Notes: generated from the letters alone by a model not told the origin. DNA of 64,000 bases from a virus (IMGVR_UViG_3300043444_000502:1-64000); one strand, 5' to 3'. Counted from the first letter of the stretch, positions 62 through 18,732 are shown. Numbers and translations are program-made.

Positions 62-148
62 GGTGAATTGGCAGAGAGGCTTATTGCGTTTGTTTGCTAA
101 ACAAAAGATCCTCAACGGGGTCCATAGGTTCGAATCCTATATTCACCA
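62..148 (+). tRNA. tRNA-Ser: tRNA-Ser(GCT), class II (long variable arm)
   Basis: hand-folded: acceptor GGTGAAT/ATTCACC, anticodon stem TTTGT/ACAAA, loop TTGCTAA, T-arm ATAGGTTCGAATCCTAT. Confidence 0.7.
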
Positions 149-155
149 CCATTTT

Positions 156-227
156 GGGCTGTTAGTGATAATGGGAGCACGTCGGCTTTGCACGTCGAAG
201 GTAAGAGTTCGATTCTCTTACGGTCCA
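156..227 (+). tRNA. tRNA-Ala: tRNA-Ala(TGC)
   Basis: acceptor GGGCTGT/ACGGTCC with G3.U70, anticodon stem TCGGC/GTCGA, loop TTTGCAC, T-loop TTCGATT, CCA encoded. Confidence 0.7.
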
Positions 228-236
228 CCAAAATAT

Positions 237-307
237 ATCTCAGTAGTGTAATGGCAGCATCACAGTCTCCAAAACTGTTGGTCGGGGTTCGAGTCCCTGC
301 TGGGATG
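237..307 (+). tRNA. tRNA-Trp: tRNA-Trp(CCA)
   Basis: acceptor ATCTCAG/CTGGGAT, anticodon stem ACAGT/ACTGT, loop CTCCAAA, T-arm CGGGGTTCGAGTCCCTG. Confidence 0.7.
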
Positions 308-372
308 CCAATCAATCACGTGGGTAGCAAGAAAAGATAGGTTAAATTCTACACCTGCGTGGCTCAATTAAT

Positions 373-447
373 CTCTGTGTAATGTCAATCTGGTAGACGG
401 CTCGGTTTGGAACTGAGAGGCTGTAGGTTCGAATCCTACCATGGAGA
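373..447 (+). tRNA. tRNA-Pro: tRNA-Pro(TGG)? (A37; isotype less certain)
   Basis: acceptor CTCTGTG/CATGGAG, anticodon stem CTCGG/CTGAG, loop TTTGGAA, T-arm GTAGGTTCGAATCCTAC. Confidence 0.55.
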
Positions 448-455
448 CCAAATAT

Positions 456-527
456 GCTTCCGTAGCTCAGAGGAAGAGCACAGTCTTGATAAGGCTGGGG
501 TCGACATTTCGAAATTGTCCGGGAGTA
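456..527 (+). tRNA. tRNA-Ile: tRNA-Ile(GAT)
   Basis: acceptor GCTTCCG/CGGGAGT, D-arm GCTCAGAGGAAGAGC, anticodon stem CAGTC/GGCTG, loop TTGATAA. Confidence 0.7.
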
Positions 528-540
528 CCATTTTTAATGT

Positions 541-586
541 ATCATATAATATACATTATGAGCGTTTATGTATATTATATGATACA
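541..586. repeat. AT-rich perfect inverted repeat (ATCATATAATATACAT ... ATGTATATTATATGAT) between two tRNAs
   Basis: read directly from the sequence. Confidence 0.6.
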
Positions 587-590
587 TTAT

Positions 591-665
591 GGTGCGGTGG
601 CCGAGTGGTCCAAGGCAACGGATTGCAAATCCGTAAAATCGTCAGTTCAAATCTGACTCGCACCT
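591..665 (+). tRNA. tRNA-Cys: tRNA-Cys(GCA)
   Basis: acceptor GGTGCGG/TCGCACC, anticodon stem ACGGA/TCCGT, loop TTGCAAA, T-arm GTCAGTTCAAATCTGAC. Confidence 0.65.
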
Positions 666-674
666 CCAAATAAT

Positions 675-747
675 GCGGCTATAGTCTAATGGATAAGGCA
701 ACGGTCTTCTACACCGTCAGATGTGGGTTCGACTCCTGCTAGCCGCG
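675..747 (+). tRNA. tRNA-Arg: tRNA-Arg(TCT)
   Basis: acceptor GCGGCTA/TAGCCGC, anticodon stem ACGGT/ACCGT, loop CTTCTAC, T-loop TTCGACT. Confidence 0.7.
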
Positions 748-770
748 CCAAATTATTTTTAGAAAAACTA

Positions 771-799
771 TGTACAAACAACTTTAGTTGTGGTATAAT
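771..799 (+). promoter_or_regulatory. sigma70-type early promoter: TGTACA-N17-(TGG)TATAAT
   Basis: -35 771-776, extended -10 791-799; upstream of tRNA-Leu. Confidence 0.55.
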
Positions 800-814
800 A
801 GATGTAAGTTAAAT

Positions 815-894
815 GCGAGTGTGGTGAAATAGGTAAACACAGGAGACTTAAAATCTCCCGCTTCGGCTTGACGGTTCGATTCCGTCCACTCGCA
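815..894 (+). tRNA. tRNA-Leu: tRNA-Leu(TAA), class II
   Basis: acceptor GCGAGTG/CACTCGC, anticodon stem GGAGA/TCTCC, loop CTTAAAA, variable arm CGCTTCGGCTTG, T-loop TTCGATT. Confidence 0.7.
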
Positions 895-903
895 CCAATT
901 AAT

Positions 904-976
904 GCACGGTTCGTCTATCGGTTTAGGACACTAGCCTTTCACGTTAGTAAGACGGGTTCGATTCCCGTACCGTGTA
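904..976 (+). tRNA. tRNA-Glu: tRNA-Glu(TTC)
   Basis: acceptor GCACGGT/ACCGTGT, anticodon stem CTAGC/GTTAG, loop CTTTCAC, T-arm ACGGGTTCGATTCCCGT. Confidence 0.7.
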
Positions 977-1099
977 CCATTAATTAGGCTCTTTGTAAGC
1001 TCAGAGACCTGATCATGTGTTATGTAACTGTAGCAATAAACCGTAATCGATCGTAAAGCGTGTTGAACTACAGCAAATAGTGCAGAGAGTCTAATTAAT

Positions 1100-1174
1100 G
1101 GTTCGTTAGTATAGTTGGCCTAATATGCTTGCCTGTCACGCAAGAGATCACGGGTTCGAATCCCGTACGGACCG
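1100..1174 (+). tRNA. tRNA-Asp: tRNA-Asp(GTC)
   Basis: acceptor GGTTCGT/ACGGACC, anticodon stem CTTGC/GCAAG, loop CTGTCAC, T-arm ACGGGTTCGAATCCCGT. Confidence 0.7.
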
Positions 1175-1184
1175 CCAAATTAAT

Positions 1185-1252
1185 CGCGGAGAGTCAGGGT
1201 AGAGGAAAGTCTCATAAGCTTCTCCTAGAAGGTTCGAATCCTTCCTCCGCAA
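1185..1252 (+). tRNA. tRNA-fMet: tRNA-Met(CAT), initiator-like (C1.A72 mismatch), short D-arm
   Basis: acceptor CGCGGAG/CTCCGCA with unpaired C1-A72, anticodon loop CTCATAA, T-arm GAAGGTTCGAATCCTTC, ends AACCA. Confidence 0.5.
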
Positions 1253-1263
1253 CCAAGTTTTAT

Positions 1264-1337
1264 TGGCCTATAGCACAGTTGGTAGTTGCGCTTGACTGTT
1301 AATCAAGATGTCCGTGGTTCGAGCCCACGTAGGCCAG
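1264..1337 (+). tRNA. tRNA-Asn: tRNA-Asn(GTT)
   Basis: acceptor TGGCCTA/TAGGCCA, anticodon stem CTTGA/TCAAG, loop CTGTTAA, T-loop TTCGAGC. Confidence 0.7.
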
Positions 1338-1412
1338 CCAATTATGTCATGACTAATCTCAGGAACTCCCGTCCACCTGAGTTAAAATAACAAAAAAACG
1401 GGGCCAAATTTT

Positions 1413-1494
1413 GGAGATGTAGGAAAACTGGTAACCCCAGCTGACTGTAAATCAGCCGCCCCTGGCACTGTGTGTTCGACTCACACCGTCTCCA
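1413..1494 (+). tRNA. tRNA-Tyr: tRNA-Tyr(GTA), long variable arm
   Basis: acceptor GGAGATG/CGTCTCC, anticodon stem GCTGA/TCAGC, loop CTGTAAA, T-arm GTGTGTTCGACTCACAC. Confidence 0.7.
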
Positions 1495-1806
1495 CCAAGT
1501 TTTGTAAGTGTTAGCAAGAGAAAGACATCATATTCGAGTAGATGGCCATCGAAAGATTTGATAAAGCAATGAGGGGCGCAATACCCTAGCAAAAAATAGA
1601 AGCATTGGTTAAGTATCCCAAGTGACGTACCGAGTCCCAGCGCGCCTTGATAAATGGGTGAATGATGCATATAACGATGGTTGCATAACTTACAAATTTA
1701 ACAGACCCCGCATTGACCGGTGTGCGTAATCACCGGTCACCATATTTAAGCATACAGTGTGTCGGCTTGCTGATAAACTTTAAGTAGAGATTGTATGCTT
1801 AAATAT

Positions 1807-1878
1807 GGTAACGTAGCAAAGAGGCCTTGCACTTTCTTCATACGGAAGCTAACGCTGGTTCGAATCCAGCCGTTACCA
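1807..1878 (+). tRNA. tRNA-Met: tRNA-Met or Ile2 (CAT), elongator type
   Basis: acceptor GGTAACG/CGTTACC, D-stem GCAA/TTGC, anticodon stem CTTTC/GGAAG, loop TTCATAC, T-arm GCTGGTTCGAATCCAGC. Confidence 0.65.
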
Positions 1879-1897
1879 CCAAGATATATAATTATTT

Positions 1898-1968
1898 GCC
1901 CTATTAGTTTAATGGTAAAACATCGGTTTTGTAATCCGAGGCTTGCAGTTCGATTCTGTGATGGGGCA
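1898..1968 (+). tRNA. tRNA-Thr: tRNA-Thr(TGT)
   Basis: acceptor GCCCTAT/ATGGGGC, D-stem GTTT/AAAC, anticodon loop TTTGTAA (4-5 bp stem), T-loop TTCGATT. Confidence 0.6.
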
Positions 1969-1977
1969 CCAACTTTT

Positions 1978-2051
<74 letters not shown>

Positions 2052-2066
2052 CCAAAATGAGGATAT

Positions 2067-2708
2067 ATGGATATTCCATTATTTGAACAATCGGTTAGAC
2101 ATATTTTATTTCCAACAAAAATTTGGGAATATCAATTAGCTAATACATCTGAACTCGATGTGTATGCACAAAAATTTATTGATATTCGCGAAAAAGAAGG
2201 TGGAGGTTTATATTCTGGATTAGGTAATTGGGTAAGTCCAGATGATTTACACTTGAGAACAGATTGGCAACCTATTAAAGATATTTTTTTAAGTAGAGTT
2301 GCTGCAGCAGTTGATGACTTAGGTATTTTGCATGAAGATCTATACGTAAATTGCATGTGGGGAAATTCTCATATAGGATCAAGTCAACATCAAGTACATC
2401 ATCATCCTAATAGTATGTTTTCTGGAGTATTTTATCTAAGTGCTCCTGAAGGTTGTGGAAATTTATTTTTTAAAGATCCACGCGGACCTTTGGCAAATAC
2501 ATATGTGTTTGACTATAAGGAAGGTTATAATAATTTTGAAATATATAGATTTAAACCGACTAAAGGAAAAATTATTATTTTCCCAAGTTGGTTAGAACAC
2601 GGCACAGAACCAGGAGATTTTGAAGGAGAAAGAATCTCTTTAAGTTTTAACGTAATGGTAAAAACTAAAATTTCTAAACGATCTATTAAATGGAATTATT
2701 ATGACTGA
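2067..2708 (+). CDS. 2OG-Fe(II) oxygenase superfamily protein (TIGR02466-like)
   Basis: motifs HHHPNS ... FPSWLEHG; paralog of 7569 and 8201 ORFs. Confidence 0.6.
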   Translation: MDIPLFEQSVRHILFPTKIWEYQLANTSELDVYAQKFIDIREKEGGGLYSGLGNWVSPDDLHLRTDWQPIKDIFLSRVAAAVDDLGILHEDLYVNCMWGNSHIGSSQHQVHHHPNSMFSGVFYLSAPEGCGNLFFKDPRGPLANTYVFDYKEGYNNFEIYRFKPTKGKIIIFPSWLEHGTEPGDFEGERISLSFNVMVKTKISKRSIKWNYYD

Positions 2709-2865
2709 AGATAAAAAGTGCACATGTGGTCGTTCATTAACTAGCAAATGTGTTGGTTGGCACGATTTAACTGAAGAAGAGTGGAAACAAAAATTGCTTC
2801 AAGCTGTTCAAGCTTTAACTGGACGTGCTAAACAACGCGAAATAGAGAGAAAGAGAAAAAAATGA
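2701..2865 (+). CDS. small hypothetical protein (54 aa, Cys-x-Cys, basic C-terminus)
   Basis: ATG/stop overlaps neighbours (ATGA junction at 2862); not in the >=60 aa track. Confidence 0.3.
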   Translation: MTEDKKCTCGRSLTSKCVGWHDLTEEEWKQKLLQAVQALTGRAKQREIERKRKK

Positions 2866-3131
2866 GTGAAGGCGGAAAAGGTAGTAAACCAAGACCATTT
2901 AGCATTTCTCAAGATGAGTATGATGCTCGATGGGATGCAATCTTTCAACGTGATATTCCTAAAGAAGAGCGAGTTAGTACTAAGATCGAAGATGGTTTCG
3001 AACTAGAAAGCTTAGATCCAGATCAACGTTCATGGTATTATGACGAATATGGTGTTAAACGTAAAAAAGAAAAAGAAGAAGTAAAAATCAAAGCGACGAT
3101 CCTTGATGTAAAGCTTAAAGGATCTATCTAA
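2862..3131 (+). CDS. hypothetical protein
   Basis: ORF track; compact packing. Confidence 0.45.
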   Translation: MSEGGKGSKPRPFSISQDEYDARWDAIFQRDIPKEERVSTKIEDGFELESLDPDQRSWYYDEYGVKRKKEKEEVKIKATILDVKLKGSI

Positions 3132-3136
3132 AACAT

Positions 3137-3209
<73 letters not shown>

Positions 3210-3220
3210 CCAACAATATT

Positions 3221-3300
3221 GCGGATGTGGCGTAATTGGTAGCCGCAACGGTCTTAGAAGCCGTCGCTTCGGCGTGTGAGTTCGAGTCTCACCATCCGCA
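3221..3300 (+). tRNA. tRNA-Leu: tRNA-Leu(TAG), class II
   Basis: acceptor GCGGATG/CATCCGC, anticodon stem ACGGT/GCCGT, loop CTTAGAA, variable arm CGCTTCGGCG, T-arm GTGAGTTCGAGTCTCAC. Confidence 0.7.
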
Positions 3301-3396
3301 CCATTAAAAATTTCCCGATAAAGCTAATCTAGTGAAAGCGCTGGTCTGAAAAGCCAGAGAGTTTGGTGCGTAACCAAATGTCGGGACCACAAATAT

Positions 3397-3469
3397 ACCC
3401 CGTTGGTGAAATGGATGATCATACAACGCTACGAACGTTGAGGTAGAGGTTCGATTCCTTTACGGGGTA
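3397..3469 (+). tRNA. tRNA-Arg: tRNA-Arg(ACG)
   Basis: acceptor ACCCCGT/ACGGGGT, anticodon stem CAACG/CGTTG, loop CTACGAA, T-arm AGAGGTTCGATTCCTTT. Confidence 0.65.
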
Positions 3470-3478
3470 CCAGTTAAT

Positions 3479-3570
3479 GCTCCTGTAGTTTAATGGTAAA
3501 ACTCCAAGCTTATACCTTGGCGATGTCTCTAGATGAGGGAATGATGTGGGTTCGAATCCCGCCGGGAGTA
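3479..3570 (+). tRNA. atypical class II tRNA, 92 nt, anticodon reads TAT (identity unclear: Ile-UAU-like anticodon on a Leu/Ser-like long-arm scaffold)
   Basis: acceptor GCTCCTG/CGGGAGT, D-stem GTTT/AAAC, anticodon stem CCAAG/CTTGG, loop CTTATAC, 25-nt variable region, T-arm GTGGGTTCGAATCCCGC, CCA encoded. Confidence 0.5.
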
Positions 3571-3574
3571 CCAA

Positions 3575-3620
3575 AGTTCTATATGTACAACATGTTAAAA
3601 ATATGGTATAATATACCTAT
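3575..3620 (+). repeat. 47-nt element AGTTCTATATGTACA(A/G)CATGT(T)AAAAATATGGTATAATATA(C)CCTAT, copy 1
   Basis: near-identical copy at 10625-10670 with three differences. Confidence 0.7.
3584..3612 (+). promoter_or_regulatory. early promoter TGTACA-N17-TGGTATAAT
   Basis: part of the 47-nt element duplicated at 10625-10670. Confidence 0.6.
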
Positions 3621-3638
3621 AATTTGAAAGGATATAAT

Positions 3639-4223
3639 ATGCAAGTGAATCTTCGTAAAGCAAATGCAATTCAAGCCGAGATCAAAAAGGCGATTAGTGG
3701 CGTGAAAACAGAAGTAAATGTATCTGTTAGTGAGTTCACTGCAGATATTTCAAAAGCTGTTGCTGATGCTGCAACAGAATTCCTAAATGCTGTGAAGCGT
3801 AAGGAACAACTTAATACAGCATTGTTCGAAATTCGAGCAGCTGTAGGACGAGCAAATGCTCAAGCTGGTGTAGGTGATCTACTTGCAGAAGTAGAACGCA
3901 TTGATGGTAAGATGAATATCATCGCAGCAGTAGCAAATGCTCAAGTAGCAAAGTCTGTAGATGAACTTAAGGCTCGCGTAGAGAAGTTGAAATCTAATAG
4001 CACTGGCGAGAATTCTCGTCTAGCGTTATATGGTGATCGTTACAGTAGTGTAGAAACAAGCGTAGTTGCACAATCTGTGATCGATCAATTCAAAGCTGAA
4101 GTTAAAACACTGAAGCGTGCCAAACAAGATCTTCAAGATAAACTCTTGAATGTGAATGTTGGAACAACCATCACTCTGTCTGCGGACACAGTGAGAGTGT
4201 TAAAAGAGGAAGGTATCCTCTAA
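3639..4223 (+). CDS. hypothetical coiled-coil protein (track start 3624; RBS AAAGGA favours ATG 3639)
   Basis: early promoter at 3584-3612; Ala/Lys/Glu-rich heptad-like sequence. Confidence 0.5.
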   Translation: MQVNLRKANAIQAEIKKAISGVKTEVNVSVSEFTADISKAVADAATEFLNAVKRKEQLNTALFEIRAAVGRANAQAGVGDLLAEVERIDGKMNIIAAVANAQVAKSVDELKARVEKLKSNSTGENSRLALYGDRYSSVETSVVAQSVIDQFKAEVKTLKRAKQDLQDKLLNVNVGTTITLSADTVRVLKEEGIL

Positions 4224-4502
4224 TTTTTCGAGAGTAAGAAGGATAGGAAGTTATTGCATTTAAGGTAAGTTGCAACATTATCGAATTTGTGCTCGATAAT
4301 GCAGGATAAGTCTTGAAAACTTATTCCGACTAATCTCCGGCCAACTCATAGTTAGTTGCTCCCATCATACTGGACGTTAAGTCATTGCTTATTGATAATG
4401 GGATCTTAATACTTTGTGGCCTGCTTATTGTAATTTGCAAATTGCAGGTTGCTGAGCGACTTATCGCATAATGGAATTGATCTCTTACTCTCACCTTCTA
4501 AT

Positions 4503-4573
4503 GCGGGATTAGTTTAGTGGTAAAACGACATCCTTCCAAGTTGTAGTTGCGAGTTCGATTCTCGCATCCCGCT
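4503..4573 (+). tRNA. tRNA-Gly: tRNA-Gly(TCC)
   Basis: acceptor GCGGGAT/ATCCCGC, D-stem GTTT/AAAC, anticodon loop CTTCCAA, T-arm GCGAGTTCGATTCTCGC. Confidence 0.7.
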
Positions 4574-4577
4574 CCAA

Positions 4578-4814
4578 TTGATTATGTACAAAATATATTT
4601 TACAAACGAATACGGTGAAGATAGATCTTATAAAGAAGACTCTTTGTCAGAAGCATTAAAAATTGCTGAAGGACTTAGACGTAATCAAAGAAATAGCTTT
4701 GTTGTAATGACATCAGAGAATCCAAATTGTGTAGGTAAACAGGGTGTTGATAGTGTTGTTGAAGGTAAACTACCTGATGGCAACGATTATGAATGGAAGA
4801 AAAGACGAAAATGA
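4578..4814 (+). CDS. hypothetical protein
   Basis: ORF directly after tRNA-Gly. Confidence 0.4.
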   Translation: MIMYKIYFTNEYGEDRSYKEDSLSEALKIAEGLRRNQRNSFVVMTSENPNCVGKQGVDSVVEGKLPDGNDYEWKKRRK

Positions 4815-4852
4815 AACGAAAACGTAAATCAGAAAAAACCCGAAAGATGATG

Positions 4853-4924
4853 GGGGGTATAACTTAACGGCTAAAGTACCTGGCTTTTAACCAGATAATC
4901 AGAGTTCGATTCTCTGTGCCCCTA
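4853..4924 (+). tRNA. tRNA-Lys: tRNA-Lys(TTT)
   Basis: acceptor GGGGGTA/TGCCCCT, D-stem ACTT/AAGT, anticodon loop CTTTTAA, T-arm CAGAGTTCGATTCTCTG. Confidence 0.65.
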
Positions 4925-5047
4925 CCAAATCATTATAAGAGAGTAGATTGACGAGAACATCATACCACTGCAATGGAACTTGTTCAAGTCGGTTTGCAGA
5001 TCGAGCGGATCTATAAATTACCGTTCAGTCTATTCCCTTATAACGAT

Positions 5048-5119
5048 GGTGTTAGTAGTGTAGTGGCTGCACACTTGTCTGTGAAACAAGTAGAGAGGGT
5101 TCGATTCCCCCTTTCACCC
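5048..5119 (+). tRNA. tRNA-His: tRNA-His(GTG) with extra 5' G(-1)
   Basis: anticodon stem CTTGT/ACAAG, loop CTGTGAA, T-loop TTCGATT; acceptor has two T.T mismatches, so ends uncertain. Confidence 0.55.
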
Positions 5120-5129
5120 CAAAGAATTT

Positions 5130-5202
5130 GCCTGGTTGCGTAGAGAGGTGATACGTCTCCCTTACAAGGAGAGCGATGTTGGTTCGAGTCCAACACCAGG
5201 TA
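5130..5202 (+). tRNA. tRNA-Val: tRNA-Val(TAC)
   Basis: acceptor GCCTGGT/ACCAGGT, anticodon stem TCTCC/GGAGA, loop CTTACAA, T-arm GTTGGTTCGAGTCCAAC. Confidence 0.7.
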
Positions 5203-5225
5203 CCAGATTTGATATATAGTAGTAT

Positions 5226-5297
5226 GCTTCTATAACATAATGGCTAATGTGGACGTCTCTAAAACGTTTTATCTGAGTTCAATTCTCAGTAGAAGCA
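5226..5297 (+). tRNA. tRNA-Sup(CTA): suppressor-type tRNA, anticodon CTA (reads UAG amber), class I
   Basis: acceptor GCTTCTA/TAGAAGC, D-stem ACAT/ATGT, anticodon stem GACGT/ACGTT, loop CTCTAAA, T-arm CTGAGTTCAATTCTCAG, CCA encoded. Confidence 0.6.
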
Positions 5298-5411
5298 CCA
5301 ATTTTTATAAGGAGAAAATCTATGAAAGCGACGCATCTCTAGATTCAAAAGCCTCCGTGATGGTTCTTGTTGTTTAAAGGAAATCATTTTAAATTTAACA
5401 AGGAAAATCAC

Positions 5412-5784: not shown

Positions 5785-6342
5785 ATGAATGTGCTGGCAC
5801 TTGACGTAGGTGGAATTCCACGTCAATGGTTAAATTTCGAACAAGCTATATTGTATCATGCTAAAGGCCAAGTTGCTTGGACACTTGGTGATACAGTTGC
5901 TAAGTTCAGAGGAGGTCTACAAAACGATGGTACAGAATCGTATTTAGAATCTCCTTCGATCATTGCTATTAAAGGCGGTGAGGGATTTAATCCTGCAAAA
6001 TTTGGTAAAGTTGTTTTAAGTAACAAAACACTATTTGCAAGAGATAGACATGTCTGCGCGTACTGTGGTAATCATTTTACTTCTAATCATCTTTCCCGTG
6101 ATCATATTGTTCCTGTGTCACGTGGCGGTGAGAATGTTTGGATGAATGTTGTAACTGCGTGTAAGAAATGTAACTCTGTGAAGAGTGACAAAACACTTAA
6201 AGAAGCTCGTATAGAATTGTTATACATTCCATACGAACCAAATCACTACGAACACATGATCCTTATGAATCGTAACATACTTGCAGATCAGATGGAATAT
6301 CTGTTAAGCGGTGTGCCAAAACATTCACGGGTTTTGTCTTAA
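5785..6342 (+). CDS. HNH endonuclease
   Basis: CAYCGN..H..RDHIVPVSRGG...ACKKCN zinc-HNH motif. Confidence 0.8.
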   Translation: MNVLALDVGGIPRQWLNFEQAILYHAKGQVAWTLGDTVAKFRGGLQNDGTESYLESPSIIAIKGGEGFNPAKFGKVVLSNKTLFARDRHVCAYCGNHFTSNHLSRDHIVPVSRGGENVWMNVVTACKKCNSVKSDKTLKEARIELLYIPYEPNHYEHMILMNRNILADQMEYLLSGVPKHSRVLS

Positions 6343-6350
6343 ATCAAATT

Positions 6351-6377
6351 TGGGGATCTCAGATCCCCATTTTTTAT
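6351..6377 (+). terminator. rho-independent terminator
   Basis: GGGGATCT/AGATCCCC hairpin + T-run after the HNH gene. Confidence 0.6.
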
Positions 6378-6390
6378 GATATATAATGAT

Positions 6391-6987
6391 ATGATTGAAA
6401 AGCCTATTATAATTGATGACGTCATCGACGTTTCATATCAAAATGTTCTTATAGAAGAATTCATACAAAAAGCTCCATGGTTTTTTGTAAACGATATTAC
6501 GTTTGCAAATGGTGCAAATCATAGAAAAACTCCAGCCTTTTCCCATTTGTTTACTGAATTTGGAAAATACCATGATGATCAATTTTTTCATATGGTAAGT
6601 CCAATTGCTTATGAAGCATGTAAACATATCAATTATAAAATCGATTTAGTTTATAAAGCTAGATCGTTTTTGCAACTTCCATTATCAGAACAATTTAAAT
6701 CGAAAGATATAGACGCACTACATGTGGATCAACCATTTCCACATCTCGTAGTGCTTTATTATTTGGTTGATTCAGATGGTGATACAATATTGGTTGATCA
6801 TAAACGTGAAGATGATGTAGATTATAATTTAGAAGCATACGATTTTAAAGAATTACTTCGAATTACACCAAAAAAAGGTCGTTGTGTTATCTTTGATGGT
6901 GATTATTATCATACCGCTGAACAACCAGTATATAATACAAGAGCTATTATAAATTTTAATTTACTTGGAAAATTTAAAGATGTTTAA
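6391..6987 (+). CDS. 2OG-Fe(II) oxygenase family protein, sub-family A paralog 1 (track start 6376)
   Basis: LHVDQP..H-x-D ... DGDYYHTAEQP; N-termini of the paralogs align from MIEKPIIIDDVI. Confidence 0.65.
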   Translation: MIEKPIIIDDVIDVSYQNVLIEEFIQKAPWFFVNDITFANGANHRKTPAFSHLFTEFGKYHDDQFFHMVSPIAYEACKHINYKIDLVYKARSFLQLPLSEQFKSKDIDALHVDQPFPHLVVLYYLVDSDGDTILVDHKREDDVDYNLEAYDFKELLRITPKKGRCVIFDGDYYHTAEQPVYNTRAIINFNLLGKFKDV

Positions 6988-7591
6988 AGAACCTATTGTC
7001 ATAGATAATGTCATTTCAAAACGATATCAAACTCATGTGCGTGATAGTTTATTAAGTGCAAATATCGAATGGTTTTATCAACCAGATATTACATATCCAA
7101 TGCATAAAATGCCTGAAGGTTTTATTCCAAAACCGGGTTTATCACATTTGTATTACGATAATGTTAGAAGCCAAAATCCGCTTAGTCCATGGTTTCATAT
7201 GATTTGGCCTATCGCATTAGAAGCATGTGATAAAATGAATATTGTATTCGATGAATTAATGCGCGCTCGTTCATTTTTACATTTCCCTACAGATCCAAAT
7301 AGTAAACTACTTAATCATCCACACATTGATTATGAAATTCCACATTTAGTTTTATTATATTATGTTAATGATAGCGATGGTCCAACGGTTTTATATAATG
7401 AAACACTCGTTGATATTAAAGAAAAGGATTTGTCACTTGATAAACTTACTGTGAAAATGGAAGTAGAACCACGTCAAGGGCGAATGGTTATTTTTGATGG
7501 ACACACATATCATAGTAGCACACAACCTACAAAATCATCTCGATGTATTATTAATTATAATTTATTAGGTGCAAAATATGCAACTAACTAA
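6980..7591 (+). CDS. 2OG-Fe(II) oxygenase family protein, sub-family A paralog 2 (track start 6965)
   Basis: PHIDYEIPH ... FDGHTYHSS; paralog of the 6391 ORF. Confidence 0.65.
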   Translation: MFKEPIVIDNVISKRYQTHVRDSLLSANIEWFYQPDITYPMHKMPEGFIPKPGLSHLYYDNVRSQNPLSPWFHMIWPIALEACDKMNIVFDELMRARSFLHFPTDPNSKLLNHPHIDYEIPHLVLLYYVNDSDGPTVLYNETLVDIKEKDLSLDKLTVKMEVEPRQGRMVIFDGHTYHSSTQPTKSSRCIINYNLLGAKYATN

Positions 7592-8213
7592 TGCGTTTGA
7601 AGTTCCGATTTTGTATCATAAACAAAAATTACAATCACATGATACAATAAAACAATGGATTTTAAACATGTATTCGAAATCTCCTGTAATGGATGGAAAC
7701 TTTTATGGGACAGGATTTACAACTCATTTCTATAATGACTTTACTAGCGAATTACATGTATTAGATGAATTTTTTCCATTGCGCAATCACATTTTGCAAA
7801 AAGCATCAGAATATGCGATGGAACGAATTGTTAAACTAAAATCGATGGGATGCGAAGTACAATCAGATCCTCGTTTAAAGATTAAAAAAATGTGGTTTAA
7901 TGTTAATCCGAAACATGGTTATCAAGGTCGACATCATCATGGTGGATTTGTATTAGCTGGAACATATTATGTAAATGTACCACAATATTCCGGAGCAATT
8001 GAATTCACAGATCCAAATCCATTTTCATATTATAAAAACCAAAGTATGGGTCATCGTTGGTTATTGAATAATTATTATAGTGTAACACCAGAAGAAGGTG
8101 ATTTATTAATTTGGCCAGGTTATTTAGATCATGAAGTCAAAACTAATAAATCGAATGACTTAAGAATGACTGTATCATTTTGTTTAGATTGGGAGGAAGA
8201 ATGCCCGCAGTAA
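7569..8213 (+). CDS. 2OG-Fe(II) oxygenase superfamily protein (TIGR02466-like), sub-family B
   Basis: HHHGGF ... WPGYLDHEV; paralog of the 2067 and 8201 ORFs. Confidence 0.6.
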   Translation: MQNMQLTNAFEVPILYHKQKLQSHDTIKQWILNMYSKSPVMDGNFYGTGFTTHFYNDFTSELHVLDEFFPLRNHILQKASEYAMERIVKLKSMGCEVQSDPRLKIKKMWFNVNPKHGYQGRHHHGGFVLAGTYYVNVPQYSGAIEFTDPNPFSYYKNQSMGHRWLLNNYYSVTPEEGDLLIWPGYLDHEVKTNKSNDLRMTVSFCLDWEEECPQ

Positions 8214-8836
8214 TTTATCCTTTTGGACCAGGTTTATATAAAGCTCGTTTATCTGATGACGTATTACATATGCTACAAGAAGTAGTAGAACGTGTACGTA
8301 AAGATGATTCTTTGAATAGAAGTTATAAAGCTGGTCAATTTGTATATGGTAAAAATCCAATGATGGATTTTACACCTGAAGAATTTAAATTATTTGATTT
8401 AGAAATCAAACGACATATGCTATCATACTTTTTAGAAATGCGGAATACTATTCGCATGGATAAAGATATGTCTAAAAAATGTTTAGATGCTGTTAATACA
8501 ATGCGACCGCACAATGATCATGAAAATGAAGCTAGCATTTGGGCGAATATCCAACATGCAGGTGATATGCATCCAATTCATAATCATCCAGGTGATATTT
8601 CATTTGTAACATATATTAAAGTTCCAGAATTAACTGAAGAAGATAAATTCAGAAGCGGAGGTATGGTTGCATGGACATATGGAGAATATATGGAATTTTC
8701 TAATGATATGTTTGCGCATCAACCTGAGGTTGGAGAAATTTTTATTTTTCCACCAAAATGTAGACACTTTGTTTGGCCATTTAGTAATAAAGATGGAGAA
8801 CGCATTTCTGTAGCAGGTAATTATGAATTTGCCTAA
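8201..8836 (+). CDS. 2OG-Fe(II) oxygenase superfamily protein (TIGR02466-like), sub-family B (track start 8180)
   Basis: HNHPGD ... FPPKCRHFVWP ... GERISVAGNYEF. Confidence 0.6.
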   Translation: MPAVIYPFGPGLYKARLSDDVLHMLQEVVERVRKDDSLNRSYKAGQFVYGKNPMMDFTPEEFKLFDLEIKRHMLSYFLEMRNTIRMDKDMSKKCLDAVNTMRPHNDHENEASIWANIQHAGDMHPIHNHPGDISFVTYIKVPELTEEDKFRSGGMVAWTYGEYMEFSNDMFAHQPEVGEIFIFPPKCRHFVWPFSNKDGERISVAGNYEFA

Positions 8837-9440
8837 TGACGTAATAGTATTAGATGATTTCTTACCTAAAGCTTTTGTTGAACGATATGCTCAACGAGTT
8901 TTAGATAAAGATTTCAATTGGTTTTATTTAGAAAATATTACTAGAAGCAATATTCCTAGAACATATAAATCAATTGATAATATTGAATGGCATGATACAG
9001 ATGGTTTATCACATTCTGTATTTCACGATAAAGAATGGTATGATCCATATTGGTCATTACAACATTCTTTGTTTATATGCGAAATGTTTGCAGAAAAAAC
9101 GGGTTGGAATTTTGATAGACTATATCGAATGAAAATTAATCAATTGATGATTACACCAAAATATGAAATTAATTTTCCTCATGTGGACGCAGAACATCCT
9201 CATGATGTTTTATTATATTACATTAATGATAGCGATGGAGAAACTATTCTTTATGATAAAATGTGGGAACCATCACACAATAATACAGAAGTAGAATTGA
9301 AAGAAATTTTACGAATTCCCCCAAAAGCAGGAAGATGCATTAAATTTAATGGTTTGCGTTATCATAGTAGTTCAACACCTGTTAAAACAAAAAGACGTTT
9401 AGCACTTAATATGAATTTAGGATACACACATGGAATATAA
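8823..9440 (+). CDS. 2OG-Fe(II) oxygenase family protein, sub-family A paralog 3
   Basis: PHVDAEHPHDVLLYYINDSDG ... NGLRYHSS. Confidence 0.65.
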   Translation: MNLPNDVIVLDDFLPKAFVERYAQRVLDKDFNWFYLENITRSNIPRTYKSIDNIEWHDTDGLSHSVFHDKEWYDPYWSLQHSLFICEMFAEKTGWNFDRLYRMKINQLMITPKYEINFPHVDAEHPHDVLLYYINDSDGETILYDKMWEPSHNNTEVELKEILRIPPKAGRCIKFNGLRYHSSSTPVKTKRRLALNMNLGYTHGI

Positions 9441-10080
9441 CGATATTATTGTAAGAGATGGATTAGTTCCGAAATATTTGCAACGAAGATTTTATGATGC
9501 TGTAACAGATCGCAATCTCCATTGGATGGATTTTGATCATGAAGTATCTTCAGGCGATTATTGGAAAGGTCGTAATTATTTGTGTGATGGTTTAAATATT
9601 AAACCATCACCGTGTTTAGTTAAATTAGCATTTACTGGTGGAGCACGAGGACCAAATGATCCAGAAATGATTCATGAACCAGAATGTTTTTACTATATGG
9701 GATTGTTCATTCTTGATCTTTTAGCTGAGAACGAAGGTTGGAATGTGAAACGCATTCTTCGCATGAAGATCAACAAACAAGTTCCTATGCATGGTTTTAC
9801 AGAAAACGATTGTAATGGAATTCATACAGATACAGAAATTCCACATAAAACACTAGTGTATTATATCAATGATAGCGATGGTGATACAATTATTATGAAT
9901 GAAAAATTTCAACCATCGCATAATGTACCAGGATGCGATATTAATACTACTATTGCAACACGTGTAACACCTATGCAAGGTAGAATTGCATGTTTTGACG
10001 GATTACGTTATCATGCTCCTAGTAATCCAATTAATTCTAAATCTCGATACCTTTTAAACATTAACTTTGTGACTGAATAA
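9430..10080 (+). CDS. 2OG-Fe(II) oxygenase family protein, sub-family A paralog 4
   Basis: IHTDTEIPH ... YYINDSDGDT ... DGLRYHAPS. Confidence 0.65.
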   Translation: MEYNDIIVRDGLVPKYLQRRFYDAVTDRNLHWMDFDHEVSSGDYWKGRNYLCDGLNIKPSPCLVKLAFTGGARGPNDPEMIHEPECFYYMGLFILDLLAENEGWNVKRILRMKINKQVPMHGFTENDCNGIHTDTEIPHKTLVYYINDSDGDTIIMNEKFQPSHNVPGCDINTTIATRVTPMQGRIACFDGLRYHAPSNPINSKSRYLLNINFVTE

Positions 10081-10625
10081 TGAAAAATTATATTTCCGTA
10101 TATGAAAACGTTTTAGACGAAACATTTTGCAAACTACTAATTGATAAGTTTGAACGAAATAAACAAATTCAAGTGCGTAGAGATGATGTTTATAAAACAT
10201 TTTTTGAAATTAATTTTGCACAATATCCAATTTTTGCAGAAGAACAAAATCATATTCTTTCACAAGTACAACCATTTGTTAGAAAATACTGTGAAGATTG
10301 GGGGATTAAATTCTTCCCAGATAAAATTGGATTTGAACAAGTTCGTATGAAAAAATACGAAATTGGAGGCAAAGATGAATTTAGAGAACACGTCGATGTA
10401 GGAGATTATGCGTCTGCACGTAGATTTCTTGTAATGTTCTTTTATCTCAATAATGTTGCAGAAGGTGGAGAAACTGCTTTTATTGGTATTGATGACAATA
10501 AAAGAATTCAACCTAAAACTGGCAGCATATTAATTTTCCCTCCAATGTGGACACATCCTCATGCTGGTTTGCCGCCAATTTCTAATCCAAAATATATTGC
10601 AGGAACATATTTGCATTATACTTAA
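10080..10625 (+). CDS. prolyl 4-hydroxylase-like 2OG-Fe(II) oxygenase, sub-family C
   Basis: EHVDVGD ... AEGGETAF ... WTHPHAG; paralog of the 15431 ORF. Confidence 0.65.
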   Translation: MKNYISVYENVLDETFCKLLIDKFERNKQIQVRRDDVYKTFFEINFAQYPIFAEEQNHILSQVQPFVRKYCEDWGIKFFPDKIGFEQVRMKKYEIGGKDEFREHVDVGDYASARRFLVMFFYLNNVAEGGETAFIGIDDNKRIQPKTGSILIFPPMWTHPHAGLPPISNPKYIAGTYLHYT

Positions 10626-14545: not shown

Positions 14546-14809
14546 ATGCCAGGAATCGCAAGAGTTGGAGTTGATACCGCTGGTGGAACTATCACTGGTA
14601 ATTTAGCTCCTAATGTTAATATAAATGGAAGTCCAATAGTAGTAAAGGGTGCAACCGTTCAAGGTCATGGTCTTGGACCTCATGCATCTCCAACTATGGA
14701 TGGTTGTAGTTCTACAGTATTTGCAAATGGAATTCCAGTTTGTAGAGAAGGTGATGCAGCTACTTGCGGTCATCCAGCAACTGGATCAGGAAGCGTTAAT
14801 GCCGGATAA
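14546..14809 (+). CDS. PAAR-repeat spike-tip protein (T4 gp5.4-like)
   Basis: MPGIARVGVD..NINGSPIVVKG ... VFANGIPVCREGD..TCGHPATGSG. Confidence 0.75.
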   Translation: MPGIARVGVDTAGGTITGNLAPNVNINGSPIVVKGATVQGHGLGPHASPTMDGCSSTVFANGIPVCREGDAATCGHPATGSGSVNAG

Positions 14810-15428
14810 TATATTTGAATGCGATTTTTCTGAAGAGAAACTTATATCATTATTGCCAAATGCAAAAAATCATAAAAAATGGTTTAATGAATTAAAAACG
14901 CTTTTACCGCAATTTGAAATAAATACTACTAAACGTTTAGCGGCATTTATTTCTCAAACCTCATATGAATCTATAGGTTATACAGTATTTAAAGAAAATT
15001 TAAATTATAACGCAAATACTTTATTAACCATTTGGAATAATAAATTTACTCCAGAATCTGCACAAGCATATAGTAGAAAACAAGAAGCAATTGCTAATAG
15101 AGTATATGCAAATAGAATGGGGAATGGCAATGAAGAAAGCGGAGATGGTTGGAAATACCGCGGCCGTGGATTAATTCAAATTACTGGAAAAGACGCATAT
15201 AATAAATTTGCATCTTATATTGGAATGGATTTGGATGATACAATAGATTATTTAGAAACAACACATGGCGTAATACATGTTTCATGTTGGTTGTGGAAAA
15301 ATATGAATTTAAATGATTTTGTAGATGCAAATGATATGGTTAGCTTAATTCAAAGATTGACTCATGGTTTAATTGATGTCGATAAGCGAATTGAAGAATA
15401 TAATAAAATGATTAATATAATAGGATAA
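14799..15428 (+). CDS. GH19-like peptidoglycan hydrolase (lysozyme/chitinase class I fold); track start 14649 is an out-of-frame N-extension
   Basis: AFISQTSYES ... YRGRGLIQITGK; ATG overlaps the PAAR stop (ATGCCGGATAA); paralog of the 18109 ORF. Confidence 0.7.
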   Translation: MPDNIFECDFSEEKLISLLPNAKNHKKWFNELKTLLPQFEINTTKRLAAFISQTSYESIGYTVFKENLNYNANTLLTIWNNKFTPESAQAYSRKQEAIANRVYANRMGNGNEESGDGWKYRGRGLIQITGKDAYNKFASYIGMDLDDTIDYLETTHGVIHVSCWLWKNMNLNDFVDANDMVSLIQRLTHGLIDVDKRIEEYNKMINIIG

Positions 15429-15430
15429 GT

Positions 15431-16033
15431 ATGCAAAGCGATATTCGCGATTTTATTGGTGTATTTGATGACGCTCTTCCAGAAACTGTATGTGAAGAAT
15501 TAATAAAACATTATCATTATGTTGATCAATGGGCTTTAACTGATAAACGCACATTTGATCGCCAAGAAGCTGAACACATTGGAAAAACGTATAAAGATGA
15601 TAAAACATACTTTATGCATGAAGAACATTTAGATGAAATAAAGTTAATCAATTCTTGGCTAGCTGGTGTAATGAATAAAGCAATTAGATCTTGCATTGAA
15701 GAATACAATAAAAAATATGATGTATTATTAAATAGAGGTTATGGTTTATGGGGACATCGTCTTCAAAAAACTGGAATCGGTGCAGGTTATCACGTATGGC
15801 ATTACGAAAATAGCGGTAAAGAAGATAGTGATAGAATTTTAGCTATATTAGTATATCTTAATGACGTTGAAGAAGGCGGAGAAACAGAATTCCTTTATTA
15901 TCCTCGCCGCGTTAAACCTAAAAAAGGTAGAATCGTTATTTTCCCAGTAGGATATACTCATACACATCGTGGCAATCCTCCAATTTCTAATGAAAAATAT
16001 TTAGTTGCCACATGGACAAACAACGTAAACTGA
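15431..16033 (+). CDS. prolyl 4-hydroxylase-like 2OG-Fe(II) oxygenase
   Basis: GYHVWHYEN ... VEEGGETEF ... YTHTHRG. Confidence 0.65.
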   Translation: MQSDIRDFIGVFDDALPETVCEELIKHYHYVDQWALTDKRTFDRQEAEHIGKTYKDDKTYFMHEEHLDEIKLINSWLAGVMNKAIRSCIEEYNKKYDVLLNRGYGLWGHRLQKTGIGAGYHVWHYENSGKEDSDRILAILVYLNDVEEGGETEFLYYPRRVKPKKGRIVIFPVGYTHTHRGNPPISNEKYLVATWTNNVN

Positions 16034-16156: not shown

Positions 16157-16390
16157 ATGGTAAAAACGATTGGAAGAAAGATGTGTAATTGTTTATTCTG
16201 GGCTTTATGGATGAAATTCAGGTGGGGTGGACAAATCAAATGGCATAAAAGTCGTACATGGTTTGGGTTTCATAACACATGGATAAATCCTAAAGGTGTA
16301 GAATGGGAATACACATTAGAGAAAGTTAAACGACATTCAATATGGTATATTCCAATATGCTATAAAGGTGTTGTAAAGAAATTGTTGTAA
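16157..16390 (+). CDS. hypothetical Trp/Lys-rich small protein (doubtful)
   Basis: ORF track only; abuts the tmRNA. Confidence 0.25.
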   Translation: MVKTIGRKMCNCLFWALWMKFRWGGQIKWHKSRTWFGFHNTWINPKGVEWEYTLEKVKRHSIWYIPICYKGVVKKLL

Positions 16391-16391
16391 T

Positions 16392-16445
16392 CCCTTCAAA
16401 GCGAAGGACTTCTGGACGCGGGTTCGACTCCCGCCTCCTCCACCA
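16392..16445 (+). ncRNA. ssrA: tmRNA (ssrA) acceptor piece of a circularly permuted two-piece tmRNA: T-arm + 3' acceptor strand + CCA
   Basis: GGACGCGGGTTCGACTCCCGCCTCCTCCACCA matches the conserved tmRNA 3' end; CTCCTCC pairs with GGGGGAG at 16534-16540 including G3.U70. Confidence 0.8.
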
Positions 16446-16533
16446 AAAGTATACTTAAATCTGTAAAAAGATCGGGATTGGTAAGCCGGAACCTCTACTT
16501 AGTAAGTTCATTTCACCTTAGTATACTTCTGAT

Positions 16534-16723
16534 GGGGGAGCCATGGTTTCGACAGGGGTAGATAGTAGAGACGGCAACACGGTAGGCGATGACCGTAAAT
16601 CAAGCAAATAACGTAAATGCAAACGATAGCGCATACGCTTTAGCAGCCTAAGAAACTAGCTAAGCTGAGGTAACTATACCTTATAATCAAAAATAGTAAA
16701 GGCTCCTTCGGGAGCCTTTTTTT
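16534..16723 (+). ncRNA. ssrA: tmRNA (ssrA) coding piece: 5' acceptor strand GGGGGAGCCATGGTTTCGACAGGGG, tag ORF 16604-16651 encoding ANNVNANDSAYALAA-stop, 3' terminator hairpin
   Basis: conserved tmRNA 5' motif (GGGG..GGnTTCGACnGGG); tag ends YALAA + TAA; located 3' of the acceptor piece, i.e. a permuted gene order. Confidence 0.8.
16701..16723 (+). terminator. rho-independent terminator (3' end of tmRNA)
   Basis: GGCTCC-TTCG-GGAGCC + T7. Confidence 0.7.
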
Positions 16724-16726
16724 ACG

Positions 16727-16734
16727 TATAAATA
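16727..16734 (+). promoter_or_regulatory. T4-type late promoter TATAAATA
   Basis: upstream of the tail-fibre gene. Confidence 0.55.
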
Positions 16735-16770
16735 GATTAGGAATACAACCATTCATGGACGATCTATTAT

Positions 16771-18057: not shown

Positions 18058-18108
18058 GAATTATGTCAATTGACATGATCTTATATTTAAACAACACTTG
18101 GAGTGAGA

Positions 18109-18732
18109 ATGGAATTAACATTACAACAACTAAAGCAGTTACTTCCAAAGAACCCATACGTTGACCATTGGCATCATGCATTATCGCAGTTGCTACCAGA
18201 TTATGAAATAAACACACCACAGCGTATTGCAGCATTCATTGCTCAATGTGCTCATGAATCAGGTGGGTTTATGGTTCTTAAGGAAAATTTAAATTATAAA
18301 GCTGCTACACTTCGCAAGATCTTTCCGAAGTATTTCCCTACAGATGCTATGGCTGCAGAATATGCTGCAAAACCAAATAAACAAGAAGCTATTGCTAATC
18401 TTGTTTACGCCAATCGTATGGGTAATGGTGGTCCAGAAACTGGTGACGGATATCGCTATTGCGGTAGAGGTTTAATTCAATTAACTGGCAAAACTAATTA
18501 TACGTGGTTTGCAGCGTCACTTGGAATTCCAGTTGAAGAAGCTGCTGAATATCTACAAACATTTGAAGGTGCTGCACAATCTGCATGTTGGTTCTGGGAA
18601 ACCAATAATTTAAATAGATTTGCAGATACGAATGATATCAAAGGATTGACTAAAGCCATTAATGGCGGTTATATCGGACTTGAAGATCGCATTAAACATT
18701 ATGAGCATGCGTTACACGTTTTAGGAGTGTAA
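18109..18732 (+). CDS. GH19-like endolysin (track start 18103 is GTG)
   Basis: AQCAHESGGF ... CGRGLIQLTGK; late promoter at 18050. Confidence 0.75.
   Translation: MELTLQQLKQLLPKNPYVDHWHHALSQLLPDYEINTPQRIAAFIAQCAHESGGFMVLKENLNYKAATLRKIFPKYFPTDAMAAEYAAKPNKQEAIANLVYANRMGNGGPETGDGYRYCGRGLIQLTGKTNYTWFAASLGIPVEEAAEYLQTFEGAAQSACWFWETNNLNRFADTNDIKGLTKAINGGYIGLEDRIKHYEHALHVLGV

Follow-up and report, generated by a model that had tools for sequence, protein, structure and literature searches.

The window, by which we mean the whole 64,000-nt stretch of viral DNA that was analysed, very probably carries a functional phage-encoded ssrA gene; judging from its sequence and from those of its relatives, the gene is circularly permuted (two-piece) and belongs to the beta subtype. 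The elements of a phage two-piece tmRNA match in the window far beyond chance, and the gene, as we read it from these comparisons, is evidently genuine, intact and selected.

Detection and limits of the gene

The original prediction had proposed a complete two-piece tmRNA gene within a phage genome, and we found that the programs it had suggested bear this out. ARAGORN calls a permuted tmRNA (tmRNA*) at 16353-16742 with the tag ANDSAYALAA. In Rfam 15, the beta_tmRNA model RF01850 matches 16333-16721 over model positions 1-331 of 331 (158.7 bits, E = 5e-49), and the tmRNA_permuted model RF04321 matches 16383-16651 over its full length (154.6 bits, E = 9e-31); both lie above the gathering scores, which are 84 for RF01850 and 47 for RF04321. 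Two outcomes had been named as evidence against the gene, an absent covariance-model hit and P1, P2 and pseudoknot pairings that do not form; we examined both and found that two models match and that the pairings form.

The gene runs on the plus strand in the permuted order: an acceptor piece whose CCA ends at 16445, a spacer, and a coding piece that begins with G1 at 16534 and holds the tag at 16619-16651. The predicted gene start at 16392 has to be moved, as the Rfam alignment places the 5' strand of P2, and with it the start of the gene, at about 16383, which is 9 nt further upstream.

Compensatory evolution maintains the helices within and between the two pieces

To lay out the two pieces we used the Rfam alignments. 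In the acceptor piece (16383-16445), the outer P2 5' strand UGUUG (16383-16387) and the inner P2 5' strand ACUUCUG (16408-16414) are followed by the T-stem and loop (16418-16434), the acceptor-stem 3' strand CUCCUCC (16435-16441) and the discriminator A with an encoded CCA (16442-16445). The conserved tmRNA 3' end predicted for this piece is present, and its proposed position of 16412-16445 is off by 2 nt, with GGACGCGGGTTCGACTCCCGCCTCCTCCACCA located at 16414-16445. The 5' part of the coding piece (16534-16595) opens with the conserved 5' end GGGGGAGCCATGGTTTCGACAGGGG exactly where it was predicted (16534-16558). It contains the acceptor-stem 5' strand GGGGGAG (16534-16540), in which G3 lies opposite U70, the conserved linker CCAUGGUUUCGA, the inner P2 3' strand CAGGGGU (16553-16559), the outer P2 3' strand GG+CAACA (16573-16579) and a hairpin, CGGU-AGGCGAUG-ACCG (16580-16595). 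The predicted acceptor stem, GGGGGAG with CTCCTCC, does pair, and the alanine identity elements, namely the G3.U70 pair, A73 and the encoded CCA, are all intact.

To examine these helices across the family, we aligned 54 distinct related viral sequences with the variable spacer spliced out, took the structure from Rfam and counted the pairs. In this alignment, 96.9% of cells are paired, as compared to 85.1% in shuffles and 39-58% when the partners are slid, and 16 pairs have changed on both sides. The covariation score is 0.326 as compared to 0.101 in shuffles, and none of 500 shuffles reached it. In the acceptor stem (7 bp), three pairs show compensatory changes and G3.U70 is present in all 54 sequences. 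In the T-stem, four of the five pairs covary and 100% of cells are paired; in the inner P2 helix, five of the seven pairs covary and 99% of cells are paired; the outer P2 helix is invariant and 100% paired. A minimum free energy (MFE) fold of the whole precursor recovers the same helices independently. The tRNA-like domain and the helices between the two pieces are thus maintained by compensatory evolution.

The middle part of P2 reads less clearly. Pair 20:95 between the pieces shows two-sided (compensatory) changes and pair 19:96 one-sided changes in the alignment, and in the window sequence the middle helix is imperfect, with non-canonical positions. A competing local hairpin, CCUUC/GAAGG (16393-16407), is 98% paired in the family with almost no informative variation. 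From these sequences, the register of middle P2, as a helix between the pieces or as a local hairpin, is ambiguous. Between P2 and the resume codon, inspection by eye found no pseudoknot of the PK1 type, the hairpin at 16580-16595 being the only structure there, and no convincing pairing partner for the AGGCGAUG loop, whose sequence is fixed by the pattern used to search for relatives. The pattern by which the relatives were collected lies within the 16573-16600 hairpin, so part of the conservation seen in this hairpin follows from the sampling.

The spacer resembles a conserved processing substrate

An 88-nt spacer (16446-16533) separates the two pieces. In the MFE fold, a 9-bp stem (16447-16455 with 16520-16528) closes the spacer and stacks on the acceptor stem, and an unpaired CUGAU leader (16529-16533) stands ahead of G1. 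Among 75 family members, the spacers are 26-196 nt long (median 80), which brackets the length in the window, and the same two features recur: the closing stem begins directly 3' of CCA in 71 of the 75 spacers, and an unpaired UGAU is found immediately 5' of G1 in 59. The spacer stem and the UGAU leader together look like a conserved processing substrate.

Relatives fix the tag, which is followed by a pseudoknot and a terminator

As predicted, there is an open frame that closes with YALAA-TAA at 16651, with a terminator downstream. The proposed 15-residue tag ANNVNANDSAYALAA, which would begin at the GCA at 16604, did not hold up. Relatives place the tag 17, 18 or 19 nt from the hairpin, so that the upstream GCA is often out of frame, and in five unique family sequences (L011, L013, L097, L109 and L113) an in-frame TAA lies between the two GCAs. 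Because this spacing breaks the frame and these stops interrupt it, the GCA at 16604 is not the resume codon; the resume codon is the GCA at 16619-16621, which follows UAAAU, and the tag is ANDSAYALAA (16619-16651, with the TAA stop at 16649-16651), in agreement with ARAGORN and with the Rfam alignment. The resume context UAAAU|GCA AAC GAU is conserved in the family.

When we compared 37 distinct 10-codon tags, we found that A1, N2, A9 and A10 are invariant while the codons for them vary: Ala9 and Ala10 use all four Ala codons, and position 8 uses five Leu codons. Variability is 0.39 at third codon positions as compared to 0.17 at first and 0.13 at second positions. As read from these tags, the frame is under protein-level selection, and the third-position variability together with the synonymous turnover of Ala and Leu codons indicates that it is translated in the family. 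Many family members (for example L032, L072, L088, L047 and L016) carry tags of 23-33 residues, such as ANADTFDFSAMSFTGNTVRGAANESRFALAA and AKASTGEVTVSGKNVKFSARTAKAESFAV, in place of the 10-residue AND..ALAA form, and some tags end in FAV or LAV and not in LAA.

A topology search places an H-type pseudoknot after the tag (16666-16697), of which the Rfam beta model also recovers stem 2 with its loop. Stem 1, UGAGGU/ACCUUA, pairs 16666-16671 with 16678-16683; stem 2, ACUAU/AUAGU, pairs 16673-16677 with 16693-16697; and the A-rich loop 3, UAAUCAAAA, spans 16684-16692. In the family, the topology search found a candidate pseudoknot in 74 of 87 tails, most with the same arrangement and with very different (covarying) stem-2 sequences, and the scores are mostly 11-16 paired positions as compared to mostly 10 or fewer in shuffled tails. 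A terminator scan places a strong intrinsic terminator directly downstream (16698-16726), with a 9-bp stem (AAAGGCUCC/GGAGCCUUU), a UUCG loop and a U7 tract; it matches the terminal hairpin of the RF01850 model and is identical in the relative L101.

Transcription in the window probably starts upstream

Upstream of the tmRNA lies a 77-aa ORF (16157-16390, plus strand) whose TAA stop codon (16388-16390) falls inside the first helix of the tmRNA gene. A homologue that is 69% identical occurs in L001, where it is about 9 kb upstream of the tmRNA and not adjacent to it. Many relatives have the conserved AGAATTGTTGTAA immediately next to the stop codon of an ORF. A promoter scan found no sigma-70-like promoter upstream of the tmRNA on the plus strand of the window, including after the 77-aa ORF, and transcription from an own promoter is not supported for this copy. 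Several relatives have a canonical TTGACA-17-TATAAT promoter with the -10 box ending 7-10 nt 5' of the tmRNA gene. For the window, co-transcription with the upstream genes is the likeliest arrangement. The 8 nt with which the gene begins, TGTTGTAA (16383-16390), also stand as a duplicate 12 nt further upstream, at 16371-16378, and relatives read ...TAAAGAATTGTTGTAA at the site of this duplication (16371-16390 in the window).

The gene lies in a large T4-like phage genome

By exact protein match, the window is part of a 246-kb (246,141-bp) JGI metagenome contig of a T4-like phage, and its proteins are also matched on other assemblies. The window, with a G+C content of about 35%, codes for T4-type baseplate proteins gp5 and gp6, wedge proteins, a tail fibre, a tape-measure-like protein, gp59, gp32, a cell-wall hydrolase and several 2OG-Fe(II) oxygenases; a 78-aa ORF ahead of gp59 is annotated through its exact-protein match as a gp33-type late-transcription coactivator. 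The tmRNA gene is followed directly by the tail-fibre gene and, about 10 kb downstream, by the gp33-gp59-gp32 module. On either side, the annotated ORFs are phage genes: a 2OG oxygenase, the 77-aa ORF, the tail fibre and GH19-like proteins, with no integrase among them.

With the 14 kb around the gene as query, megablast matched none of 50,697 phage records, and blastn of the tmRNA against phage records returned only matches of 37-72 nt in the tRNA-like domain; therefore, no deposited phage is a close relative. Among cultured phages, gp6 is most similar to that of the Melnitz phages, which infect OM43 (40% identity), followed by Mosig and HTVC008M, which infect Pelagibacter (38%). We found no smpB in the 64-kb window, out of the 246-kb contig, or in related loci by tblastn with an E. 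coli SmpB query, which is a weak negative.

A tRNA island opens the window (62-5300), with 24 tRNAs called by ARAGORN and one found by Rfam only at 3314-3386 (47.2 bits). One of these, tRNA-Ile(UAU) at 3479-3573, is unusually long (95 nt). At the end of the island (5226-5300) lies a tRNA with a CUA anticodon, an amber suppressor, which ARAGORN labels 'tRNA-Pyl' and which matches the Rfam tRNA model at 63.5 bits. Window ORFs that are 100 aa or longer end least often in TAG (5, with 50 TAA and 9 TGA). That suppressor read-through is linked to a need for ribosome rescue is speculation.

The tmRNA belongs to a large family of uncultured viruses

To collect relatives, we scanned IMG/VR with a degenerate pattern based on the post-P2 hairpin, which returned at least 119 stretches. 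At least 119 IMG/VR viral contigs thus carry the same tmRNA family; all 119 listed stretches match the window tmRNA at 72-81% identity, and ARAGORN calls a permuted tmRNA in 105 of them. Protein genes are common with the window in 71 of 120 loci, with a recurrent one-strand order of GH19-like protein, tmRNA, cell-wall hydrolase, gp33, gp59 and gp32, and the junction of 2OG oxygenase, tmRNA and tail fibre is also found in the independent contigs L090 and L101. Of the 119 listed viral loci, 75 contain a particular 36-mer; in 185,579 species-representative genomes of bacteria and archaea, it has a single match, which falls on a MAG contig with phage genes in common with the window. From these comparisons, the tmRNA family looks phage-resident and not freshly captured.

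The closest tmRNA relative among the matches listed, L101, also carries a GOLLD RNA (RF02032, 187.5 bits, 562-1022) that holds an embedded tRNA and sits inside the tRNA island of that contig. In the window, no GOLLD match reaches the gathering score.

The subtype is beta and does not indicate the host

The prediction had likened the permuted arrangement to that of alphaproteobacteria and cyanobacteria. We found that neither of the corresponding models (RF01849 and RF01851) scores best and that a third lineage, beta_tmRNA, wins: RF01850 is the clan member retained by competition in the window, and the alphaproteobacterial and cyanobacterial models are not kept. The 16 sources searched include 13 relatives from IMG/VR and MAGs, and RF01850 is best for all of these as well. 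As a positive control, the Melnitz ssrA was reported as RF01849 by the same tool.

Much of the window tmRNA resembles the RF01850 model, including a multi-part P2, the T-arm, the acceptor stem, a hairpin after P2, the terminator, a 3' hairpin with a CCUU..A.CAA loop, the resume context and a tag that starts with AND. It differs from the model in that it is phage-encoded, has a spacer of 88 nt where the consensus has about 30 nt and has non-canonical positions in middle P2. It also contains the family-specific GGCAACACGGTAGGCGATGACCGTAAATCAAGCAAA, which is essentially absent from bacterial species genomes.

The prediction also held that the arrangement hints at the host clade, and cultured phages contradict this. 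The Melnitz phage of OM43 carries an alpha-type tmRNA, even though OM43 lies on a host branch with beta-type two-piece tmRNAs (PMC9004378), whereas phages of Xanthomonas, Pseudomonas and Alcaligenes carry the beta type. With alpha in a phage of OM43 and beta in phages of these three hosts, the type is no guide to the host, and phage tmRNA type is not a reliable host indicator.

The three beta-type tmRNAs are found in Xanthomonas phage XacN1 (L122, 37177-37596, 107.8 bits to RF01850), Pseudomonas phage PA_L9 (L123, 80285-80669, 101 bits) and Alcaligenes phage vB_Af_QDWS595 (L124, 55007-55354, minus strand, 93.8 bits). In each, RF01850 is the best clan model, RF04321 also matches and the gene, which lies beside a tRNA cluster, has no annotated feature; in XacN1, two genes annotated 'tRNA-Sup' (suppressor) lie about 1.1 kb upstream. 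Only the tRNA-like domain of these tmRNAs is like that of the window (78-95% over 37-72 nt), and their carriers, a jumbo phage (XacN1), a Samunavirus (PA_L9) and a member of the Schitoviridae (QDWS595), belong to families unrelated to the window phage.

Closest by gp6 are Melnitz, Mosig and HTVC008M, which like the window phage are T4-like marine or aquatic myophages with a complete permuted tmRNA and tags ending in ALAA. All of them have the tmRNA among early/replication genes, not far from those for the cell-wall hydrolase, gp33, gp59 and gp32. In contrast to the beta tmRNA of the window, that of Melnitz belongs to the alpha type (106.7 bits to RF01849) and is joined to a glutamine riboswitch (52.8 bits to RF01739), in agreement with the published description (PMC9004378), and the two tmRNAs have no detectable nucleotide similarity. 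No riboswitch reaches the Rfam gathering score anywhere in the window, and the 13 relatives from IMG/VR and MAGs likewise gave no RF01739 match at that score.

The novelty that the prediction implied was misplaced, as two-piece tmRNAs of marine and aquatic phages have already been published. Buchholz et al. 2022 reported 53 in a set of 18,146 phage genomes, of which 50 are marine or aquatic cases, and named cyanophages, Caulobacter phages and pelagimyophages as carriers (PMC9004378). The tmRNA database lists 79 bacteriophage sequences (PMC11915505), and one-piece tmRNAs of mycobacteriophages and Bacillus phage G have long been listed (PMC4131195). The mycobacteriophages of cluster C (Bxz1 and relatives) and phage G are likewise large, tRNA-rich phages with a phage ssrA (PMC4131195), although their tmRNAs are one-piece with the standard gene order while that of the window is permuted. 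A phage-encoded circularly permuted tmRNA as such is therefore already known; specific here are the beta subtype in a jumbo T4-like phage related to Melnitz and the pelagimyophages, and the large, coherent uncultured family.

Proposed maturation and function

The tmRNA biology behind the maturation and function proposed here is reportedly that of Keiler, Shapiro and Williams in 2000 and of Sharkady and Williams in 2004. The gene would be transcribed as one precursor, in the window phage probably by read-through from the upstream ORF and in some relatives from an own sigma-70 promoter. RNase P would cut after the UGAU leader to generate G1, the spacer hairpin would be removed and the acceptor piece trimmed back to CCA, and P1 and P2 would then hold the two RNAs together. 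Host AlaRS would charge the tmRNA, and host SmpB and EF-Tu would bring it to ribosomes stalled on non-stop mRNAs; given that no smpB was found, the RNA would have to rely on host SmpB, with which it is putatively compatible. Translation would restart at the GCA at 16619 and add (A)ANDSAYALAA, the first Ala coming from the tmRNA itself, to give AANDSAYALAA. The E. coli tag is AANDENYALAA, and by likeness to it AANDSAYALAA presumably retains the residues used by SspB (AAND..Y) and by ClpX (LAA-COOH). In the course of infection, such an RNA may free ribosomes and allow truncated proteins to be recycled, for example while host mRNA is being degraded.

Other explanations for the gene were weighed against this one. 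The RNA could instead be a decoy that blocks host trans-translation by titrating SmpB or AlaRS, as proposed for the molecule of mycobacteriophage DS6A that consists of a tRNA-like domain (TLD) only. TLD-only tmRNA strongly inhibits endogenous tmRNA (PMC4131195; PMC11915505), and the weak tblastn search of the window and related loci detected no phage smpB, as a decoy would allow; however, a decoy needs no selected tag, resume context or pseudoknot, and here an intact tag frame shows protein-level selection over 37 distinct 10-codon tags while the resume context and the pseudoknot after the tag are conserved, so we consider a decoy very unlikely. A host ssrA captured recently and carried as a neutral passenger (moron), with a type that reports the host lineage, would account for the best model being a bacterial family, beta_tmRNA, and for the nearest cultured phages infecting OM43, a host that the Melnitz paper assigns to the branch with two-piece tmRNAs of the beta type (PMC9004378). 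Against it stand the age and residence of the family in phages, with at least 119 viral contigs at 72-81% identity and many of them in a conserved T4-like neighbourhood, the near-absence of the 36-mer (in 75 of the 119 listed loci) from 185,579 genomes, where its one occurrence is on the MAG contig with phage genes, and the decoupling of type and host among cultured phages; we give recent capture little credence.

Even less probable, to the point of being hardly credible, is that the gene is an attP-type fragment, the scar of prophage integration into ssrA or a chimera of bacterial and phage DNA made in assembly. tmRNA genes are common integration sites and ssrA fragments do occur in prophages (PMC9004378), but in the window the gene is complete in its two halves, its tag, its pseudoknot and its terminator, and no integrase is found among the annotated flanking ORFs, in keeping with the prediction that this is no attP or ssrA fragment. 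An assembly chimera is excluded because the independent contigs L090 and L101 share the junctions of the window; the window proteins also lie on the 246-kb contig and on other assemblies.

Returning to a functional phage two-piece tmRNA, we can offer a broader reading only tentatively and regard it as rather doubtful: that a beta tmRNA lineage has been kept and diversified within T4-like (and other) phages, apart from host ssrA, and is functionally linked to the phage translation toolkit. As part of this reading, the lineage would have its own conserved precursor architecture (the spacer stem and the UGAU leader) and tags that range from the 10-residue AND..ALAA form to 23-33 residues. The link to the toolkit could lie in the rescue of ribosomes that reach mRNA 3' ends through the amber-suppressor tRNA (5226-5300) or through phage-induced mRNA decay, or it could lie in countering host defences that cleave tRNA or mRNA. 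Were such a phage-resident lineage to exist, the family would be a good system for asking what trans-translation gives a virus.

The window adds a well-supported case, with a large uncultured family behind it, of big aquatic phages that carry their own ribosome-rescue RNA beside their tRNA sets. It also teaches that the subtype of a phage tmRNA is unfit for host prediction, that tag boundaries should be set from relatives and not from the longest open frame, and that beta permuted tmRNAs are present yet unannotated in the deposited genomes of XacN1, PA_L9 and QDWS595.

Other features of the window

The 2OG-Fe(II) oxygenases number at least seven paralogues, encoded at 2067-2708, 6376-10625 and 15431-16033; they match PF13640 or PF13759, two of them only below the Pfam cut-off. 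Five of these oxygenases lie in a head-to-tail array of about seven ORFs of 180-218 aa (6.4-10.6 kb), which is also found in L090; two ORFs of the array, at 8823-10080, are without a Pfam hit and yet cross-match other array members. An HNH endonuclease is encoded at 5785-6342. A GH19/chitinase-like domain (PHROG 181 'endolysin') occurs in three proteins (14649-15428, 18103-18732 and 46948-48324), two of which are encoded 1-1.4 kb to either side of the tmRNA gene, and one of the three is fused to a baseplate-region protein. Directly 3' of the baseplate wedge genes lies an ORF of 2163 aa (53121-59612).
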